This document shows, piece by piece, positions 1,188 to 12,175 of a DNA stretch of 12,175 nt (positions within the stretch are counted from its first letter, which is position 1; each line of letters begins with the position of its first letter). Made by a program: the position numbers and the translations under genes. The stretch lies in IMG/VR virus record IMGVR_UViG_2778261533_000004, positions 1-12,175 of that record, one strand, 5' to 3'. The stretch is from a virus (lineage: Duplodnaviria; Heunggongvirae; Uroviricota; Caudoviricetes). The notes under the pieces were generated by a model. It was given only the letters and a program-made list of their open reading frames with translations, ran no database searches and was not told where the DNA came from.

Positions 1188-1481
1188 TTATTGTGAGCAA
1201 TACACACGCGCTTCCAGCGGAGTATAAATGCCTAAAGTAATAAAACCGAGCAATCCATTTACGAATGTTTGCTGGGTTTCTGTTTTAACAACATTTTCTG
1301 CGCCGCCACAAATTTTGGCTGCATCGACAGTTTTCTTCTGCCCAATTCCAGAAACGAAGAAATGATGGGTGATGGTTTCCTTTGGTGCTACTGCTGCCGG
1401 TTTGTTTTGAACAGTAAACGTCTGTTGAGCACATCCTGTAATAAGCAGGGCCAGCGCAGTAGCGAGTAGCATTTTTTTCAT
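1188..1481 (-). CDS. bor: Bor lipoprotein (lambda Bor family, serum-resistance-associated outer-membrane lipoprotein)
   Basis: 97-aa ORF MKKMLLATALALLITGCAQQTFTVQNKP... with signal peptide and lipobox (ITGC), matching lambda Bor as I recall it. Opposite strand just downstream of Rz, as in lambda. Confidence 0.92.
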   Translation of the reverse strand: MKKMLLATALALLITGCAQQTFTVQNKPAAVAPKETITHHFFVSGIGQKKTVDAAKICGGAENVVKTETQQTFVNGLLGFITLGIYTPLEARVYCSQ

Positions 1482-3630: not shown

Positions 3631-3641
3631 GTGGGGTGAAT

Positions 3642-6600
3642 ATGGCAGTAAAGATTTCAGGTGTACTGAAAGACGGCACAGGAAAACCGGTACAGAACTG
3701 CACAATCCAGCTGAAAGCAAAACGTAACAGCACCACGGTGGTGGTGAACACGCTGGCCTCAGAAAATCCGGATGAAGCCGGGCGTTACAGCATGGACGTT
3801 GAGTACGGGCAGTACAGCGTTATTCTGTTGGTGGAGGGATTCCCGCCGTCACATGCCGGGACCATTACCGTGTATGAAGATTCTCAACCCGGTACGCTGA
3901 ATGATTTTCTCGGTGCCATGACGGAGGATGATGCCCGTCCGGAGGCATTGCGACGTTTTGAACTGATGGTGGAAGAGGTGGCGCGTAACGCGTCCGCAGT
4001 GGCACAGAACACGGCAGCCGCGAAGAAGTCAGCCAGTGATGCCAGCACATCTGCCAGTGAGGCGGCAACTCATGCAACCGATGCTGCAGGCTCAGCACGC
4101 GCAGCCAGCACGTCAGCCGGACAGGCCGCGTCGTCGGCTCAGTCAGCATCTTCCAGCGCAGGAACGGCATCAACAAAGGCCAGTGAAGCATCGAAAAGTG
4201 CTGCTGCTGCAGAGTCCTCAAAAAGCGCGGCAGCTACCAGTGCCGCTGCGGCGAAAACGTCAGAAACGAATGCGGCAGCGTCACAACAATCAGCAGCCAC
4301 TTCTGCATCCGCCGCGACCACGAAGGCGTCAGAAGCAGCCACCTCAGCCCGGGATGCGGCGGCCTCAAAAGAGGCAGCGAAATCATCAGAAACGAACGCA
4401 TCATCAAGCGCCAGTAGTGCCGCTTCCTCGGCAACGGCGGCAGGCAATTCCGCGAAGGCGGCAAAGACGTCTGAGACAAACGCCAGGTCTTCTGAAACGG
4501 CAGCGGGACAGAGCGCCTCGGCTGCGGCAGGCTCAAAAACAGCGGCTGCGTCGTCTGCCAGTGCCGCGTCAACAAGTGCCGGGCAGGCCTCAGCCAGTGC
4601 CACCGCCGCCGGAAAATCGGCAGAAAGTGCCGCATCGTCTGCTTCAACAGCCACAACGAAGGCTGGCGAAGCCACTGAACAGGCCAGCGCAGCAGCGAGG
4701 TCTGCTTCCGCAGCGAAGACATCCGAGACGAACGCGAAAGCGTCGGAAACCAGCGCAGAATCCTCAAAAACGGCTGCCGCATCGTCCGCCAGTTCGGCGG
4801 CGTCATCGGCATCATCGGCGTCTGCTTCAAAAGATGAGGCGACCAGACAAGCGTCCGCAGCGAAGGGCAGCGCCACGACAGCATCCACGAAGGCGACAGA
4901 GGCAGCTGGCAGTGCGACGGCGGCAGCACAGAGCAAAAGTACGGCGGAATCCGCGGCAACGCGCGCCGAGACAGCGGCAAAACGGGCAGAGGATATTGCA
5001 TCCGCCGTGGCGCTTGAGGATGCAAGTACGACGAAAAAGGGGATAGTACAGCTCAGCAGTGCGACCAACAGTACGTCTGAAACGCTGGCGGCAACGCCAA
5101 AGGCAGTAAAATCAGCCTATGACAATGCAGAGAAACGTCTGCAGAAAGACCAGAACGGCGCTGATATACCCGATAAGGGACGCTTCCTGAACAACATTAA
5201 CGCGGTCAGTAAAACAGACTTTGCTGATAAGCGTGGTATGCGTTATGTGCGGGTTAACGCTCCTGCAGGTGCAACATCTGGAAAATATTACCCTGTTGTT
5301 GTTATGCGTTCTGCTGGCTCAGTAAGCGAACTGGCATCAAGGGTCATTATCACCACGGCAACGCGAACCGCAGGCGATCCGATGAATAACTGCGAGTTTA
5401 ACGGATTTGTTATGCCTGGTGGCTGGACTGACAGGGGGCGTTATGCTTATGGAATGTTCTGGCAATATCAAAACAATGAACGAGCCATCCACTCAATAAT
5501 GATGAGTAATAAGGGCGATGATTTGCGCTCTGTGTTCTATGTTGATGGCGCTGCTTTCCCTGTTTTTGCGTTTATCGAAGATGGCCTGTCAATATCCACA
5601 CCTGGTGCTGATCTCGTTGTTAATGATACGACCTATAAGTTTGGGGCAACAAATCCGGCGACTGAATGTATCGCGGCGGACGTTATCCTTGATTTTAAGA
5701 GTGGGCGTGGTTTTTATGAGTCTCATTCGTTAATCGTTAACGATAACTTGTCGTGCAAAAAACTTTTTGCCACAGACGAAATTGTAGCGCGTGGTGGTAA
5801 TCAGATTCGAATGATAGGTGGGGAGTATGGGGCATTATGGCGTAATGATGGCGCTAAAACTTACCTGCTGCTTACCAATCAAGGTGATGTTTATGGTGGC
5901 TGGAATACATTAAGACCGTTTGCTATTGATAACGCAACCGGCGAACTGGTTATTGGAACCAAACTGTCCGCAAGTCTGAACGGTAATGCATTAACAGCAA
6001 CAAAGCTGCAAACGCCAAGACGGGTTTCTGGTGTTGAGTTTGATGGTTCCAAAGATATTACTTTAACCGCCGCGCATGTGGCTGCTTTTGCCAGAAGGGC
6101 AACGGATACATATGCCGATGCGGATGGTGGCGTTCCCTGGAATGCCGAATCAGGCGCTTATAATGTCACCCGCTCTGGCGACAGCTATATTCTGGTTAAC
6201 TTCTATACCGGAGTCGGAAGTTGCCGGACCTTGCAGATGAAGGCGCATTACAGAAATGGTGGTCTGTTCTACCGTTCTTCAAGAGACGGTTATGGTTTTG
6301 AGGAAGACTGGGCAGAAGTTTATACCTCGAAAAATCTTCCACCAGAAAGCTACCCAGTCGGCGCACCAATCCCGTGGCCATCAGATACCGTTCCGTCTGG
6401 TTATGCCCTGATGCAGGGGCAGACTTTTGACAAATCTGCTTACCCGAAACTTGCAGCCGCTTATCCGTCAGGCGTGATCCCTGATATGCGTGGCTGGACG
6501 ATTAAGGGCAAGCCCGCCAGTGGTCGTGCCGTATTGTCTCAGGAACAGGATGGCATTAAATCGCATACCCACAGCGCCAGCGCATCCAGTACGGATTTGG

Positions 6601-7040
6601 GGACGAAAACCACATCGTCGTTTGATTACGGCACTAAATCCACGAATAACACTGGTGCGCATACCCATAGTTTAAGTGGCAGCACGAATGCAGCTGGTAA
6701 TCACAGCCATAGAGATGGCCGTCGATTTAACCCCAGTGTTTTTAAAGATACTTATCAATATGGTTATACAAGCTCAGGTCAAAATACCTGGGGTGTACAA
6801 GGCTCAGTAGGTATGTCTACGGGGTGGTTAGCTAATACCAGTACAGATGGTAATCATAGCCACTCACTGTCCGGCACAGCAGCATCTGCAGGTGCACACG
6901 CGCATACTGTCGGTATTGGTGCTCATACGCACTCCGTTGCGATTGGTTCACATGGACACACCATCACCGTTAACGCTGCTGGTAACGCGGAAAACACCGT
7001 CAAAAACATCGCATTTAACTATATTGTGAGGCTTGCATAA
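3642..7040 (+). CDS. stf: Side tail fibre protein Stf (long, StfR-like variant, ~1132 aa)
   Basis: N-terminus [37 protein letters not shown]... matches lambda Stf as I recall it; start taken at ATG 3642 (the tool's 3636 is a GTG). Followed by a long Ala/Ser/Thr-rich repetitive shaft, a central domain and a His-rich C-terminal tip (HTHS/HSHS/HAHT repeats, ...[11 protein letters not shown]). Stop overlaps the tfa start (TAATG). Confidence 0.93.
3990..5050 (+). repeat. Low-complexity Ala/Ser/Thr-rich coding repeats in the Stf shaft (reiterated ...AKTSETNA...[10 protein letters not shown]... units)
   Basis: Visible reiteration of GC-rich gcnncngcn codon runs and repeated KTSETNA / SASAA peptide units; this creates long spurious ORFs in other frames and on the opposite strand. 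Confidence 0.7.
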
Positions 7041-7624
7041 TGGCATTCAGAATGAGTGAACAACCACGGACCATAAAAATTTATAATCTGCTGGCCGGAA
7101 CTAATGAATTTATTGGTGAAGGTGACGCATATATTCCGCCTCATACAGGTCTGCCAGCAAACAGTACCGATATTGCACCGCCAGATATTCCGGCTGGCTT
7201 TGTGGCTGTTTTCAACAGTGATGAGGCATCGTGGCATCTCGTTGAAGATCATCGGGGAAAAACCGTCTATGACGTGGCTTCCGGCGACGCGTTATTTATT
7301 TCTGAACTTGGCTCGTTACCGGAAAATGTCACCTGGTTATCGCCGGAAGGGGAATATCAGAAGTGGAACGGCACAGCCTGGGTGAAGGATACGGAAGCAG
7401 AAAAACTGTTCCGGATCCGGGAGGCGGAAGAAACAAAAAACAACCTGATGCAGGTAGCCAGTGAGCATATTGCGCCACTTCAGGATGCTGCAGATCTGGA
7501 AATCGCAACGGAGGAAGAAAACTCGTTGCTGGAAGCCTGGAAAAAGTATCGGGTGTTGCTGAACCGTGTTAATACAACAACTGCACCTGATATTGAGTGG
7601 CCTACGAACCCTGTCAGGGAGTAA
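7040..7624 (+). CDS. tfa: Tail fibre assembly protein Tfa (chaperone for Stf)
   Basis: 194-aa [76 protein letters not shown]..., matching lambda Tfa as I recall it; translationally coupled to stf. Confidence 0.93.
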
Positions 7625-7638
7625 TCATTGGGATTATG

Positions 7639-7672
7639 CCGCAGAAACGTTGTATGCAATAACGTTTTGCGG
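7639..7672 (+). other. Stem-loop just downstream of tfa (12-bp stem with one bulge, 9-nt loop), no U-tract; possible terminator or regulatory hairpin
   Basis: ccgcagaaacgtt-gtatgcaat-aacgttttgcgg inverted repeat 15 nt after the tfa stop; followed by ttggctgg rather than a T-run. Confidence 0.35.
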
Positions 7673-7910
7673 TTGGCTGGTGAACTTCCGATAGTGCGGG
7701 TGTTGAATGATTTCCAGCTGCTACCGATTTTACATATTTTTGCCTGAGAGGATTTGAACCGCCTCCACAGACTCTACATCACAGATAACCACTGTCACGA
7801 GGACTGTTAGTGCTGTGAGTTCAACGGGGCGATGTACGCTACCTTTAATCAAGAGGGAGAGGTACGTTGCTAAGATGAGTTTATATTCATCAACTAAGTG
7901 CAGATCAGCG

Positions 7911-7958
7911 AATAACTAAAACTTGGCTGTCTGTGACAGGAACATCGATTGACAGCCA
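7911..7958 (-). terminator. Candidate intrinsic terminator for the large minus-strand gene
   Basis: On the minus strand, 26 nt after the stop at 7984: inverted repeat tggctgtc...gacagcca (8-bp stem, long loop with possible internal pairing) followed by the U-rich run UUUUAGUUAUU. Confidence 0.35.
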
Positions 7959-7983
7959 GTTTCTCCACATTTAGGTGTTTAGA

Positions 7984-10900
7984 TTAATCATCCTCTCCAA
8001 TATTTAGATTGCTGATAACCTGTGCAGCTTCGTGGTCATAGCCAACCGCTAAATCTCTTAAGGTAACGGCGAATCGCTGAAAACCAGCGTTTTCCACTTC
8101 TTCTGCTTTTGCCCGGAACTGGTCAGCTAGCTCTCTCTCAGGTTTTCCTGTTGGATCAACACAATAAACACCTCGTGAGTTGTAGGCTCCTGTCATGTAG
8201 CCCCTGCGCATACTCTCAGCATCTCGATCGTTGAGAGCAGCTGCGACCTCTCGGTTTATCCACAAGCCATTCGGATCGGAGGGAGTATAAATCAAGACTT
8301 CACCAACTTTGCTGAGTGCAACGTCCAGGTGACCTGATGCCGTAGAACCCTCCTTAACTTTCTGAAGCCATTCAGTAAAGCGTTCTCCGTTGAACGTCCC
8401 ATTTGATTGGCTTCCTGGCGGTGTCTTCCAGTTGTACAAAAGAGTCCAGGCATTTTTTGCGATTGCTTTCAATTCATCTGTTGGTTCACTTGTCATATTG
8501 TCTTCTTTGTCAGAACGATAAATGAGTTGGATTACTTCGCAGAAAAATTCTGGATCATTAGCCATTTTATTCTCAAGGAACTTAGGCACAGCATCTTGGT
8601 GACCATCGAGCAATGGAAGGTAAGCCCACTCGATCTGAAAAAGATTATCCGGATTCACTTTGGGATCAGTCTGAAGAAATTGGATAAGGGTAGTTATGTT
8701 GTAACCATCCATGTTGGAGCTAGATTCGTTAGTTGAAGTGGCAGCAAGCAAAGCGCGGATACACTGTTCAGTATCGATTGGCTGCTTTGTCTGATGCATC
8801 CTGCACAGGCAATTGATTGCCGCAAGTGGTCTGCCATGATCAATCAGCTTATCGATGGCACTAGTAAGATCACCTTCACCCAGGTCAGGATTTGCATCGG
8901 TGCGAGCCCAATATTCGTTCTCGGAAGCTTGAGGATAATGAGAGACTCGGGTCCAGGTCTCCTTGTTAAAAGGCAGATAAGCAAAGAATTGGCCTAACTG
9001 TTCAGGAGTCCAGTCAGCTTTATCCAGATTGTCGAACCACTCCCAGCCTTTGAGATAGAAACGCTTCCAAATAAAAGCGCTTACCAATGCCTTATACTTA
9101 TTTTCTTTTGTATTGAGGAAACGGGGCAAAAGAAGTTTTTCGAACACATCATCGTTGATAGTGCCGAGTACACTTCCTATTTGATGGGGCGCAGAAACGT
9201 GATCTGCAAATCGAATAACGCCTTCTGCGCCATCTTGCCTAAGAATTTCTGATATTGCGGATTCGCGCCTTGATTCGAGTTTATTTCTCCGTTCTTCCCA
9301 ATCGCCATTTTCTAAGTAAAGATCAAAATCTCGATTTGAAAAAAGGTGCTGATATAAGTTGAATGGATTGGTAGGTGCCAGTTGCTCGGCAACATTTTCG
9401 ATTTTGGTCAGCAGATCATCTGGTAAAGCCCAATTAGCATTAGAGAATCGCCGATGTTTATTTGCGAATCGATGAAGATGATCCCAAATTACAACTCGCT
9501 GCTCTTCATTAAGACAATTAATTGTTTCCGAAGAGAGGTGCTTAAGAAGATGTTCGAAAGCAGGAGATGGAAGGCTATCAAAATTATCAATCAACAAGGT
9601 AAGGCGTTCGATATCTTCTCCGGCGTTTTTGACGGCAAGCTCAGCATAAAAAGATGTCTGCAACCAGTAATCCTGATTAGTCACTTTGCTTTCCCAATCA
9701 TCTGGGATTATTCGGCGCCAAGAGGGCTTGTGTGACCCAGAAGAGGTTTGATGGTGACCGGGTAGAAGCTGGACGAGTAAATTCCAGGCAATGTCAGGCC
9801 ATTCCTGCAAGATGACGTTGACTGCAACTTTTCGTTTTTCTATAGATGCCAGCGTTTGCGGAAACCACGGTAATAATATAGTAGTAAGCGAGTTAGATGG
9901 TCGATTAGCCCACTTGCCCCCAGGATCGTGGCTGGCAAGTTCGGCCAGTACAACACAGACGCGTACTAGGTATTGCTCATCCCAGGCTAATTCTTCTAGA
10001 GCCCATAGCAGTCCTGTCAGATAATTACCACCAGTGATACCATTTACTTCTTGAGAAAAAAGCTCATCAAATACACAAGGAGTCTGACGCATTGCCTTCT
10101 CAACTGCATCAAGAAATTTTGCAGGAGCTGCTTCAGCCAAAGTTGGTAGCAAACCGTTTAGGCTACCCCATAAAACCCAGTTTGCATCAGTCAAAATTGT
10201 ATGTATTGCGACGTTAACGGAAGTTTCAGCATTCCCCTGAGAGCAGTTAACGCAAACCTCTGGCCGACTCCCGATTATGGCTAAACCCTCTGCTATACCT
10301 TGTCGCAGCGTGGATGAAAACTTCAGCACCTTACCATGAATACTAGCAGCGTAACGCTCTTCAGCAGGTAATTCGAAAGCAGGGTCTGGCTCTTTGAGTA
10401 CGGAAATCGCGGAAGACTTAAACAATTCAAGATTCTGATCAAAAATGCGGGATCCAAGAAGACTCCATAGCTCCATTCGATTTGTTACTTTCCAAATGCC
10501 GTTTTTTAGGGACAAAGGACTGTCTGGGCTATGTAAAATCTCTCGAGCCTTCCTTAGCCATTCGTCATAGCTGATACCAAGCAATTGGGTTAGTACATTT
10601 CGGTCACACTCATTTTTATCATTCCATTGCCCAATCAACACTGCTAAGGCTAAATAAGAGGCATCTGGGTGGTGAGTCCAGTCGGTTTTGACTACCGGTT
10701 GTACTAACCTCAACTTCTCAGGTATTTCAGCAATAACCCTTTGTTTGAAAACATCTAAAAGATCTTCAGGTAGCTTACTTGAAATGATAGTGCCAGCATC
10801 TTTATTCCAAGTTTGTACGATATCAACTATCCGCGACCAAACCCACTGAGGATACTGTTGATGGAATTGCGCTATGTGGGAGTGCAGCAAAGAAAGGACG

Positions 10901-11526
10901 ACGCCTGATTCATTACCCAGATCGTACCCTAGTAAATGGAAATGGTTCAAAAAGTCATAAAGCTCATCGTTTGTTAAATCGTTCCCACTGTTTGCCATCT
11001 TCAGATGAAACTGGATGGCCTCCAGTTTCTCAGTACTTTTAGGCGGGCTGAACTTGGCTTTTTGAACGTTCCTCAAAAATTCATCGACTGTTTTTGTGTG
11101 TCTAGCCTGATTCAATAACCAGAGCACATTGTGTGTATCGGTCGAACTGAGCGGACCGGTGATCAGTGCAATAACATCCTTGTTCTTGGTAAACAAGTCA
11201 GGATTGTTGAAATCGTTCCAAGCAGCCTGTATAACTTCCCCAAGTATCGCATTACCTTGCGTAAATGAAATAGAATGCTTTATTTGTCCTAATAGCTTCC
11301 GTTTTTCATTGCTGTTGAAATCTTTAACAACGACGATCAAGTCGTCGGTATCAAAACCATCAATCTTGCCCTGGAGATTTATCTCCACTATGGGCCAACA
11401 AGGAAGACAAGGTGCATTACCGCCTGTTAGCATTAGAGCAACAAAAGACGCTTGGACATGTGCTTCAAAATGAACACCGCCTCCGCCTGTAGAAAAAGGA
11501 TTACTCAAATTTTTTTTATTTGTCAT
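7984..11526 (-). CDS. Large hypothetical protein (~1180 aa), no family assignable by eye; candidate prophage accessory or defence gene
   Basis: Single uninterrupted minus-strand ORF of about 3.5 kb with coherent codon usage; many short antisense ORFs inside it are frame-shadow artefacts. Start assigned to ATG 11526 (MTNKKNLSNPFSTGGGGVHFE...); the tool's start at 11532 is a TTG two codons upstream. RBS is weak or ambiguous. Appears more AT-rich than the flanking phage genes, by eye only. Confidence 0.8.
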   Translation of the reverse strand: MTNKKNLSNPFSTGGGGVHFEAHVQASFVALMLTGGNAPCLPCWPIVEINLQGKIDGFDTDDLIVVVKDFNSNEKRKLLGQIKHSISFTQGNAILGEVIQAAWNDFNNPDLFTKNKDVIALITGPLSSTDTHNVLWLLNQARHTKTVDEFLRNVQKAKFSPPKSTEKLEAIQFHLKMANSGNDLTNDELYDFLNHFHLLGYDLGNESGVVLSLLHSHIAQFHQQYPQWVWSRIVDIVQTWNKDAGTIISSKLPEDLLDVFKQRVIAEIPEKLRLVQPVVKTDWTHHPDASYLALAVLIGQWNDKNECDRNVLTQLLGISYDEWLRKAREILHSPDSPLSLKNGIWKVTNRMELWSLLGSRIFDQNLELFKSSAISVLKEPDPAFELPAEERYAASIHGKVLKFSSTLRQGIAEGLAIIGSRPEVCVNCSQGNAETSVNVAIHTILTDANWVLWGSLNGLLPTLAEAAPAKFLDAVEKAMRQTPCVFDELFSQEVNGITGGNYLTGLLWALEELAWDEQYLVRVCVVLAELASHDPGGKWANRPSNSLTTILLPWFPQTLASIEKRKVAVNVILQEWPDIAWNLLVQLLPGHHQTSSGSHKPSWRRIIPDDWESKVTNQDYWLQTSFYAELAVKNAGEDIERLTLLIDNFDSLPSPAFEHLLKHLSSETINCLNEEQRVVIWDHLHRFANKHRRFSNANWALPDDLLTKIENVAEQLAPTNPFNLYQHLFSNRDFDLYLENGDWEERRNKLESRRESAISEILRQDGAEGVIRFADHVSAPHQIGSVLGTINDDVFEKLLLPRFLNTKENKYKALVSAFIWKRFYLKGWEWFDNLDKADWTPEQLGQFFAYLPFNKETWTRVSHYPQASENEYWARTDANPDLGEGDLTSAIDKLIDHGRPLAAINCLCRMHQTKQPIDTEQCIRALLAATSTNESSSNMDGYNITTLIQFLQTDPKVNPDNLFQIEWAYLPLLDGHQDAVPKFLENKMANDPEFFCEVIQLIYRSDKEDNMTSEPTDELKAIAKNAWTLLYNWKTPPGSQSNGTFNGERFTEWLQKVKEGSTASGHLDVALSKVGEVLIYTPSDPNGLWINREVAAALNDRDAESMRRGYMTGAYNSRGVYCVDPTGKPERELADQFRAKAEEVENAGFQRFAVTLRDLAVGYDHEAAQVISNLNIGEDD

Positions 11527-11845
11527 TAACAATCACATCCACATTTTGATTACGAATAGATGAAAAAGAAGAGCACTCATACTTCAGAACTTATTCCACC
11601 TATATCTTTTAAAGACACTGTTATGCCTAGCATTTACGTAGATTAGCTAGCTCTCGTAAGCAATGGCTATTGCTAAAATGAATAGTTAGGTTATATCCAG
11701 TATTTTATGCTGGCGCAAGATACCCTTCGGGCCTGACAAATTTTTGTAGGTCTGAGTCACCTCTTTCCGTATGGGAGCAAATTCACAGTGGTTTGAGGAT
11801 GCTAATCTTAAAGTGAGTAACGTCTTCATACTCCAAGGAGAGTAC

Positions 11846-12175
11846 GGTAATGACTCCAACTTACTGATAGTGTTTTATGTTCAGATAATGCCCGATGACC
11901 TTGTCATGCAACTCCACCGATTTTGAGAACGACAGTGACTTCCGTCCCAGCCTTGCCAGATGTTGTCTCAGATTCAGATTATGTCGCTCAATGCGCTGAG
12001 TATAACGCTTGCTGATAACGTGCAGCTTTCCCTTCAGGCGTGATTCATACAGCGGCCAGCCATCCGTCATCCATACCACGACCTCAAAGGCCGACAGCAG
12101 GCTCAGAAGACGCTCCAGTGTGGCCAGAGTGCGTTCACCGAAGACGTGCGCCACAACCGTCCTCCGTATCCTGTC
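11846..12175 (-). mobile_element. IS1 insertion sequence, partial (one terminal inverted repeat plus the 3' part of insB; continues beyond the window)
   Basis: ggtaatgactccaacttactgat at 11846 matches the IS1 terminal inverted repeat as I recall it. The downstream sequence encodes the InsB C-terminus on the minus strand. The other end of the element is outside the window. Confidence 0.9.
11861..12175 (-). CDS. insB: IS1 transposase InsB, C-terminal portion (5' part outside the window)
   Basis: Translation ...[98 protein letters not shown] matches IS1 InsB with several substitutions relative to the IS1A copy I remember. The reading frame is open to the window end; the tool's start at 12154 is an internal GTG. 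Confidence 0.88.

Follow-up and report, generated by a model that had tools for sequence, protein, structure and literature searches.

The 1180-amino-acid protein encoded on the minus strand at 7984-11526 of the window (the whole 12,175-nucleotide stretch of DNA analysed) is best read as an uncharacterised effector-sensor defence protein, in which a Cap4-like nuclease effector and a helical solenoid lacking an NTPase probably make up a single-protein anti-phage system carried by prophages and genomic islands. Structure prediction and conservation together point to a nuclease head with E21, D62 and Q81-x-K83, joined to a modular NTPase-less solenoid. We infer the anti-phage role from the defence-island and prophage contexts of the gene and from the effector that it has in common with Avs4. 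If this reading is true, a gene universally annotated as 'hypothetical' would be a compact, one-protein immune system whose roughly 1900 homologues keep an identity of about 70% all the way from Enterobacteria to Chlorobium and Planctomycetes. It would also be a clean test case for a Cap4-like nuclease gated by a purely helical sensor, because it carries the effector module of Avs4 without the ATPase switch that is regarded as the driver of assembly.

The gene and its surroundings

The open reading frame begins with an ATG at 11526-11524, ends with a stop codon at 7984-7986, and corresponds to RefSeq WP_000182525.1 ('hypothetical protein'). An alternative TTG start would extend it to 1182 codons (7984-11532, minus strand), but the ATG start, giving 1180 amino acids, is the one used by the RefSeq entry and by all homologues. 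Residue numbers given here are ATG-based, and those of the first-pass annotation, which were TTG-based, are higher by two. The sequence features picked out in that annotation are all present in this reading frame: the glycine-rich stretch S12-T-G-G-G-G-V-H-F-E21 (11464-11493), the first CxxC within A38-P-C40-L-P-C43-W (11395-11415), the acidic cluster G57-F-D-T-D-D62 (11341-11358) and the second CxxC within E-V-C425-V-N-C428 (10243-10260), all on the minus strand. The second pair had been placed about 380 residues beyond the first, in agreement with the 385 residues that separate C425 from C40.

The window comes from E. coli and covers the distal end of a defective, DLP12-like lambdoid prophage. 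Encoded in it are genes for a lysozyme (201-698), an Rz-like protein (683-1156), bor (1188-1481, minus strand), ybcV, ybcW and ylcI together with a lom fragment, a tail fibre (3636-7040) and a tail-fibre assembly protein (7040-7624), beyond which comes the 3.5-kb minus-strand gene of the 1180-residue protein. One end of an IS1 element occupies 11846-12175, about 320 bp upstream of the start of the 1180-residue gene. This element, with an InsB-like open reading frame at 11861-12154, is annotated as IS1 in one of the loci examined (L001), and a genome lacking IS1 matches the window only up to position 11845; we regard it as context outside the system. The G+C content of the gene is 41-46%. A promoter and terminator scan around it returned fewer sites than shuffled sequences did and was uninformative.

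A predicted Cap4-like nuclease domain

When the full length was modelled with AlphaFold2 (AF2) from a shallow alignment, the N-terminus stayed unfolded (pLDDT about 30-45; overall pLDDT 63.9), whereas a run on residues 1-270 with 35 diverse homologues gave a pLDDT of 90.6, a pTM of 0.87 and an αβββαβ core. This predicted PD-(D/E)xK nuclease core spans residues 17-125 (11152-11478, minus strand) and comprises α1 (17-34), three strands (45-51, 63-69 and 74-83), a helix (93-106) and a final strand (118-123). It is followed by a helical subdomain, residues 126-265 (10732-11151, minus strand), which reaches about residue 260 in the model and includes the conserved residues D130, K167, F192 and D202.

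Structural comparison of the N-terminal model gave the highest score to SeAvs3 (13.9, 213 residues aligned), followed by the Cap4 proteins of E. cloacae (11.0) and A. baumannii (10.7), Lamassu LmuA (10.9) and Hachiman HamA (8.8), with restriction endonucleases, NucS, Can2, Card1 and NucC scoring 5-6.6. An independent Foldseek search also ranked LmuA, Cap4, HamA and Avs3 first, with E-values of 3e-5 for LmuA and Cap4, and the similarity to Cap4-like nucleases covers both the core and the helical subdomain. Residues ~17-265 are accordingly predicted to be a Cap4-like PD-(D/E)xK DNA endonuclease domain, and the enzymatic module that the first-pass annotation had proposed for the N-terminus is borne out by the model and its structural matches. 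Sequence profiles gave a different picture. There were no Pfam matches (E up to 1) for the full protein, for its N-terminal 250 residues or for 35 family members; DUF4297 (PF14130), Mrr and other nuclease HMMs did not match the window protein; and sequence searches of the PDB, whether started from the protein or from the N-terminal profile, returned nothing meaningful. The nuclease assignment therefore rests on predicted structure, and, as Pfam gives no match, the domain is a structural relative of PF14130 that lies outside that family as currently modelled.

Conservation was measured over 135-136 N-terminal domains of 41-70% identity. G17, F20, E21, Q25, D61, D62, Q81 and K83 are each conserved in at least 97% of the 136 domains, with individual values of 100% for G17 and D62, 99% for E21 and D61, 98% for Q81, and 97% for F20 and K83. 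P39, Q52, W103, D105, D117, K167, F192 and D202 are likewise near-invariant. The acidic cluster, whose conservation had been proposed as a check on the first-pass annotation, holds up at D61 and D62 but not at D59, which is variable. Across the wider range of 20-70% identity, the near-invariant positions are G14, G17, F20, E21, Q25, D61, D62, Q81 and K83.

These positions fall at the places expected of an active site. E21, in helix α1 (11464-11466, minus strand; motif F20-E21...Q25), is a putative metal-binding or catalytic glutamate and is invariant in one of our alignments (A4). D61-D62 (11341-11346, minus strand), at the start of strand β2, would supply the 'D' of PD-(D/E)xK, and Q81-I-K83 (11278-11286, minus strand), at the end of strand β3, would supply the '(D/E/Q)xK' motif, with Q in place of the usual D or E. 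The distance from the aspartate to QxK is 19 residues, compared with 18 for D41...E59xK61 of the DUF4297 nuclease, a triad described as one that 'resembles that of Cap4'. On the strength of the model and the conservation, E21, D62 and Q81-x-K83 are predicted to occupy the canonical metal-binding and catalytic positions of the PD-(D/E)xK fold.

The motifs persist at much greater divergence. A deep alignment of seven sequences takes in TPR and NACHT fusions of 20-30% identity. In it, D62 and Q81 show no variation, K or R stands at position 83, and five of the six other sequences keep E21, the sixth having a truncated annotated start. Proteins of 1500-1800 residues whose annotations read TPR, NACHT or ATP-binding have the domain at 20-30% identity and give the consensus [ST]-T-G-G-x-G-x-x-[FY]-E ... 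DD ... Q-x-(K/R). The signature [ST]TGGxGxxFE...DD...QxK thus defines a new predicted nuclease-domain family, one that Pfam, NCBIfam and PADLOC miss although it is borne by many STAND, NACHT and TPR proteins.

An NTPase-less helical body

The nuclease module is connected through a linker and the first body helices (residues 266-333; 10528-10731, minus strand), a region of low pLDDT that contains the point, at residues ~326-334, where the gene is split in some relatives, to a solenoid body formed by residues 334-1180 (7987-10527, minus strand). The full-length AF2 model is all-helical from about residue 280 to residue 1180, and its only PDB matches are to HEAT/ARM solenoids of a generic kind, CAND1 and karyopherin-β2 among them (TM <0.25). 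These results agree with the large helical-repeat body that had been suspected from the sequence. The only PHROGs match of the protein is that of the body to phrog_18693, a family of unknown function (E 5.8e-119), and none of the other domain libraries has a name for the body. Among 75 proteins of the same architecture, the most conserved patch of the body lies at residues ~441-560 and includes E465, P468, L510, E511, S546, P553, W554 and T558.

The body also occurs apart from the nuclease. In one metagenome-assembled genome (locus L012), a 326-residue gene encoding the nuclease and linker overlaps an 860-residue body gene whose product is 44% identical to residues 334-1167. Proteins of 1320-1370 residues on plasmids of Rhizobium, Shewanella, Arthrobacter and others have a homologous body (hhalign Prob 100, E 2.6e-93; residues 281-1170 against 441-1344), which is preceded by an Xre/C-protein-type HTH and about 370 unassigned residues; the nuclease module is absent from these HTH-headed relatives. 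The split genes, the HTH-headed bodies and the presence of the nuclease module on other bodies together mark the solenoid as an independent module. The two-gene form and the HTH-headed relatives are ready-made tools for separating sensor and effector.

No Walker A or Walker B pattern was found anywhere in the 1180 residues, in keeping with the earlier observation that the protein has no P-loop. The Pfam models for AAA, NACHT and STAND domains did not match the window protein, and neither did the Avs HMMs of PADLOC, at E-values up to 10.

Relationship to Avs4

Proteins of ~1700 residues that share the nuclease module fit the PADLOC Avs4 model from residue ~270 on (E 1e-108 to 1e-184) and carry a GxGKS P-loop near residue 320, and a 2191-residue relative has a NACHT domain. 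The N-terminal module of the Avs4 proteins, ~265 residues long, is homologous to that of the window protein along its whole length at 45-51% identity, and profile-profile comparison of the two families aligned all 279 columns of the module (hhalign Prob 100, E 6.9e-96). The [ST]TGGxGxxFE, DD and QxK motifs are present in both, and each is one large protein whose C-terminal region is long and helical. They differ in that Avs4 has a STAND NTPase, whereas the window protein has neither Walker motifs nor a match to the Avs4 HMM, and the body of the window protein is at best remotely related to the C-terminal region of Avs4. By these sequence comparisons, the nuclease module is a genuine effector head in antiviral STAND proteins. 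The first-pass annotation had likened the layout to that of single-protein anti-phage systems by analogy only, and its comparison gains substance from the finding that the same module heads Avs4 proteins.

The body might instead be what is left of an Avs4-type protein after loss of the NTPase, derived from the part behind the P-loop (helical and winged-helix domains and the sensor), still sensing the portal class of trigger and oligomerising without nucleotide. Besides the N-terminal module, which shares about 48% identity with its counterpart in Avs4-type proteins, an hhalign comparison of the body with the Avs4 C-terminal profile speaks for this origin (Prob 92%, E 6.7e-7, 564 columns), set against E-values of about 0.5 for reversed-profile controls; its strongest segment pairs residues 439-735 with Avs4 353-626 (E 1e-5). 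The signal is borderline, however, with per-segment probabilities of 2-7% and an E-value of 0.03 for the sensor part, and repeat proteins are prone to spurious profile matches. HMMER finds nothing, the AF2 model has no β-strands where a remnant of the nucleotide-binding domain would be expected, and protein-family comparison reports the N-terminal module only. We consider a degenerate Avs4 unlikely, and descent of the body from the post-P-loop part of Avs4 is treated here as a lead only. Were the protein an ATPase-less descendant of Avs4, it would illustrate a way for STAND receptors to do without their switch.

Distribution and genomic context

The window protein had been called an orphan, but a word-indexed search turned up 1902 homologues; cluster P0001 is 100% identical to it. 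The best 120 of the 1902 are all about 1180 residues long and 68-100% identical, and come from Enterobacterales, Vibrio, Microbulbifer, Chlorobium and Planctomycetes. A genome-contig scan with the body returned three loci and yielded a homologue from Desulfobulbales. When residues 1-260 were used in a phmmer search of 1.84 billion cluster representatives, 1286 matches were obtained, 299 of them below 1e-30. Within E. coli the gene is rare (8 of 5426 complete genomes) and is positioned beyond the tail-fibre genes.

No conserved neighbour gene was found across the loci examined, and several of the homologues lie beside defence, toxin-antitoxin or mobility genes. The Kosakonia homologue is next to a type I restriction-modification system with an embedded Septu-like pair, and to antirestriction, RadC and CbtA/CbeA genes; that of Dickeya is beside an integrase, CcdAB, ArdC and a reverse transcriptase; that of Alloalcanivorax is beside SymE and Fic; and that of Vibrio is beside Dsr1, GmrSD and an OLD/Gabija-like ATPase. 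One further locus (L011) had no obvious defence neighbours. On viral contigs, the gene follows the lambda O/P replication genes in one prophage and lies between a CI-like repressor and the integrase in a P2-like prophage. In all, it occupies accessory positions in three kinds of prophage. This distribution is typical of a horizontally mobile defence gene.

The family has no name in PADLOC v2 (2023), Pfam, NCBIfam, the PHROGs annotation or the literature searched, and may have been named elsewhere. Literature searches found no paper on it.

Comparison with known defence systems

The Cap4-like domains of SeAvs3, CBASS Cap4, LmuA, HamA and HerA-DUF4297 resemble the nuclease head in structure but are only 8-15% identical to the window protein in sequence. 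They have ExK where the window protein has QxK and no PF14130 match, and they are partnered by SAVED, the SMC-like LmuB, a helicase, HerA or a STAND NTPase, whereas the partner here is an NTPase-less solenoid.

In layout and size the protein matches Dsr1/Dsr2-type systems, in which a single gene encodes an N-terminal enzymatic effector and a helical sensor of about 900 residues with no NTPase. The sensor of Dsr1 is common to Avs7, which shows that such sensors work without STAND. The Dsr1/Dsr2-type effector is SIR2, in contrast to the predicted nuclease of the window protein. Homology of the body to the Dsr1 sensor was considered and rejected: comparison with one Dsr1 sequence gave no BLASTP similarity at E <1 (best 1.3) and an hhalign E-value of 0.28, equal to that of the reversed control, and the PADLOC Dsr1 model did not match the window protein. 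Homology of the body to PD-Lambda-4_A was likewise rejected on comparison. Upx (Gao 2020; structures 2026) is another single-protein PD-(D/E)xK defence system of about 1200 residues, and senses a phage protein, the terminase, without a STAND NTPase.

A more distant resemblance was found to the accessory protein of type VIII retrons (PADLOC 'DUF626_VIII'), the first ~140 residues of which are homologous to the nuclease core. Twelve of 35 family members match this model, with a best E-value of 4.4e-9 and one of 0.0046 for the window protein; this weak match was all that PADLOC gave for the protein and its N-terminus, the full-length protein scoring no hit, and NCBIfam gave none for either. The DUF626_VIII protein has a profile of 474 positions, is described as a putative serine esterase, is paired with a reverse transcriptase and has no solenoid body.

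The window protein therefore falls outside Avs, since an NTPase was looked for and is absent, and also outside Pfam DUF4297 (current model), Dsr1, Upx and PD-λ-4. By analogy we propose that it works in the manner of an Avs/Dsr-type effector-sensor.

Proposed mode of action

The body of about 850 residues, acting as sensor or scaffold, would hold the nuclease inactive until a phage-derived trigger binds to it, whereupon the nuclease heads would be released or oligomerised. The active nuclease would then cleave DNA indiscriminately and lead to abortive infection. This model of gating and triggering is drawn from the activation by oligomerisation of Cap4, Avs3/Avs7, LmuA and HerA-DUF4297, together with the NTPase-less sensing of Dsr1: the nucleases of Cap4, Avs3/Avs7 and HerA-DUF4297 are inactive until assembled in oligomers, and the helical sensor of Dsr1 works without a STAND NTPase.

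A broader proposal, which we put forward tentatively and hold to be doubtful, is that the family represents an unnamed, widespread and strongly conserved class of immune receptors with an NTPase-less solenoid and interchangeable heads, either a nuclease (fused or separately encoded) or an HTH-containing one. A trigger would bring about their assembly and so turn on the nuclease without nucleotide hydrolysis, and they may descend from Avs4 by loss of the ATPase.

The solenoid could also bind DNA or a modification of it directly, so that foreign DNA would be cut in a restriction-like (type IV or modification-dependent) or other DNA-targeting manner without abortive infection, or the protein could serve the prophage itself, for instance in superinfection exclusion or host takeover; we judge either of these quite improbable.

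The glycine-rich stretch and the cysteines

The glycine-rich stretch and the cysteine pairs were the features that first drew attention to the protein. A GGGG run is expected 0.0096 times, and a CxxC 0.14 times, in a protein of the same composition. Conservation of the run is uneven: G14 (95%) and G17 (100%) are maintained, but G15 and G16 are each found in 76% of about 136 N-terminal domains, and G16 and the positions between G17 and F20 are variable. The expectation that the motif would belong to a fold is similarly satisfied in part, as G17 starts the folded helix α1 of the AF2 model but residues 1-16 are disordered (pLDDT <50) and the first three glycines fall in this low-confidence tail. 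The survival of the motif through deep divergence, along with the fold and the conserved positions, suggests that the glycine run is an N-cap or loop leading into the active-site helix α1, beside E21, and the functional residue at this stretch is predicted to be E21. It is not a nucleotide-binding element, as had been considered, nor a macro-domain-like or P-loop-like one.

The first cysteine pair, C40-L-P-C43 (11398-11409, minus strand), is not conserved: C40 is present in 64% and C43 in 16% of the 136 N-terminal domains, and in 46 and 17, respectively, of the 75 proteins of the same architecture. The second, C425-V-N-C428 (10243-10254, minus strand), is kept among close relatives only. Neither of its cysteines varies among 39 sequences that are at least 68% identical, but only 12 of the 75 proteins have C425, most of the others having L or F there, and 55 have C428; in the split form, the position of C425 is L. 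Because neither pair is conserved beyond the closest relatives, neither is a family-wide metal site, and a structural or catalytic metal-cysteine site, as suspected earlier, is unlikely. As far as the alignments indicate, the cysteines are lineage-specific and have no conserved role. An N-terminal module that works as an NTP- or NAD-dependent enzyme instead of a nuclease, with a nucleotide- or metal-binding glycine loop and a zinc site at the CxxC pairs, would accommodate the improbability of the GGGG run by chance, the conservation of G14 and G17 and the invariance of C425 and C428 in close relatives, but is very hard to reconcile with the PD-(D/E)xK fold, the absence of Rossmann, P-loop and macro folds among the top structural matches, the lack of Walker motifs, the low-confidence position of the first three glycines and the poor conservation of C43 and C425.

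The residues ahead of α1 form a conserved N-terminal tail and glycine-rich N-cap (K5...S8-N-P-F-S-T-G14-G-G-G17; 11476-11514, minus strand), with the deep consensus [ST]-T-G-G-x-G. Being strongly conserved and yet unstructured, the tail (K5, S8-N-P-F-S-T) may, speculatively, have a role in gating or in contacts between nuclease heads.

Homologues of the predicted nuclease domain and of the body

The predicted Cap4-like nuclease domain also heads large proteins encoded on plasmids of Burkholderia, Polaromonas, Hymenobacter and Neorhizobium (L023-L026), at 20-30% identity. These host proteins are annotated as TPR, NACHT or ATP-binding proteins, and the nuclease domain itself carries no annotation. 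In the Neorhizobium gene, the tblastn match starts at 301, upstream of the annotated start (L026 367), which therefore appears to be too late and to exclude the TGGxG motif.

The solenoid body is found behind another type of head in three plasmid-borne proteins of 1320-1370 aa (L020 152-4264, L021 3516-7580 and L022 3576-7538). In these, an Xre/C-protein-like HTH and about 370 further residues precede the same body, and the annotation given is 'HTH transcriptional regulator' or 'HigA antitoxin'. The HTH-headed gene in L021 has an AbiE toxin-antitoxin pair on one side and a PD-Lambda-4_A-like gene on the other. A natural two-gene version occurs in L012, where the nuclease and linker (8001-8981, 326 aa) and the body (8974-11556, 860 aa) are encoded by separate genes that overlap by 8 nt; in L013 the second gene begins as in this split form.

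In a profile-profile comparison, the body (7987-10527; signal mostly from residues ~439-735) gave a borderline match to the region that follows Walker A in Avs4, the STAND NTPase proteins headed by the same nuclease module (probability 92%, E 6.7e-7), with E values of about 0.5 for reversed-profile controls. This is a hint that the body may be what remains of a STAND protein without its ATPase.

Genomic setting of the gene

The end portion of an IS1 copy (11846-12175) lies approximately 320 bp upstream of the start codon of the gene. The insertion is recent, since the match of a related E. coli genome, NZ_LR778147.1, to the window stops at 11845. IS1 may have replaced the promoter of the gene or may be its source; a consensus promoter scan of 11527-11845 found no convincing promoter. 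A 114-aa ORF with a TTG start (11129-11473, plus strand) runs antisense to the nuclease-coding region, overlapping the coordinates of the motif, but is most likely spurious and lacks support.

On its other side, the gene directly adjoins the tail-fibre assembly gene in the window strain (intervening sequence 7625-7983), whereas in strain 2017.02.03CC (L001 10896-12000) the two are separated by a gene for serine acetyltransferase and by an HTH pseudogene. Strains thus differ in the cargo region that lies distal to the tail fibres. Within the tail-fibre gene itself (3636-7040), especially at 4000-5050, about 370 residues form a low-complexity stretch rich in Ala, Ser and Thr, where AT skew is strong and local G+C reaches 62%. 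This stretch gives rise to spurious long ORFs in the other reading frames (4036-5046 on the plus strand; 4139-5068 and 4234-5025 on the minus strand).
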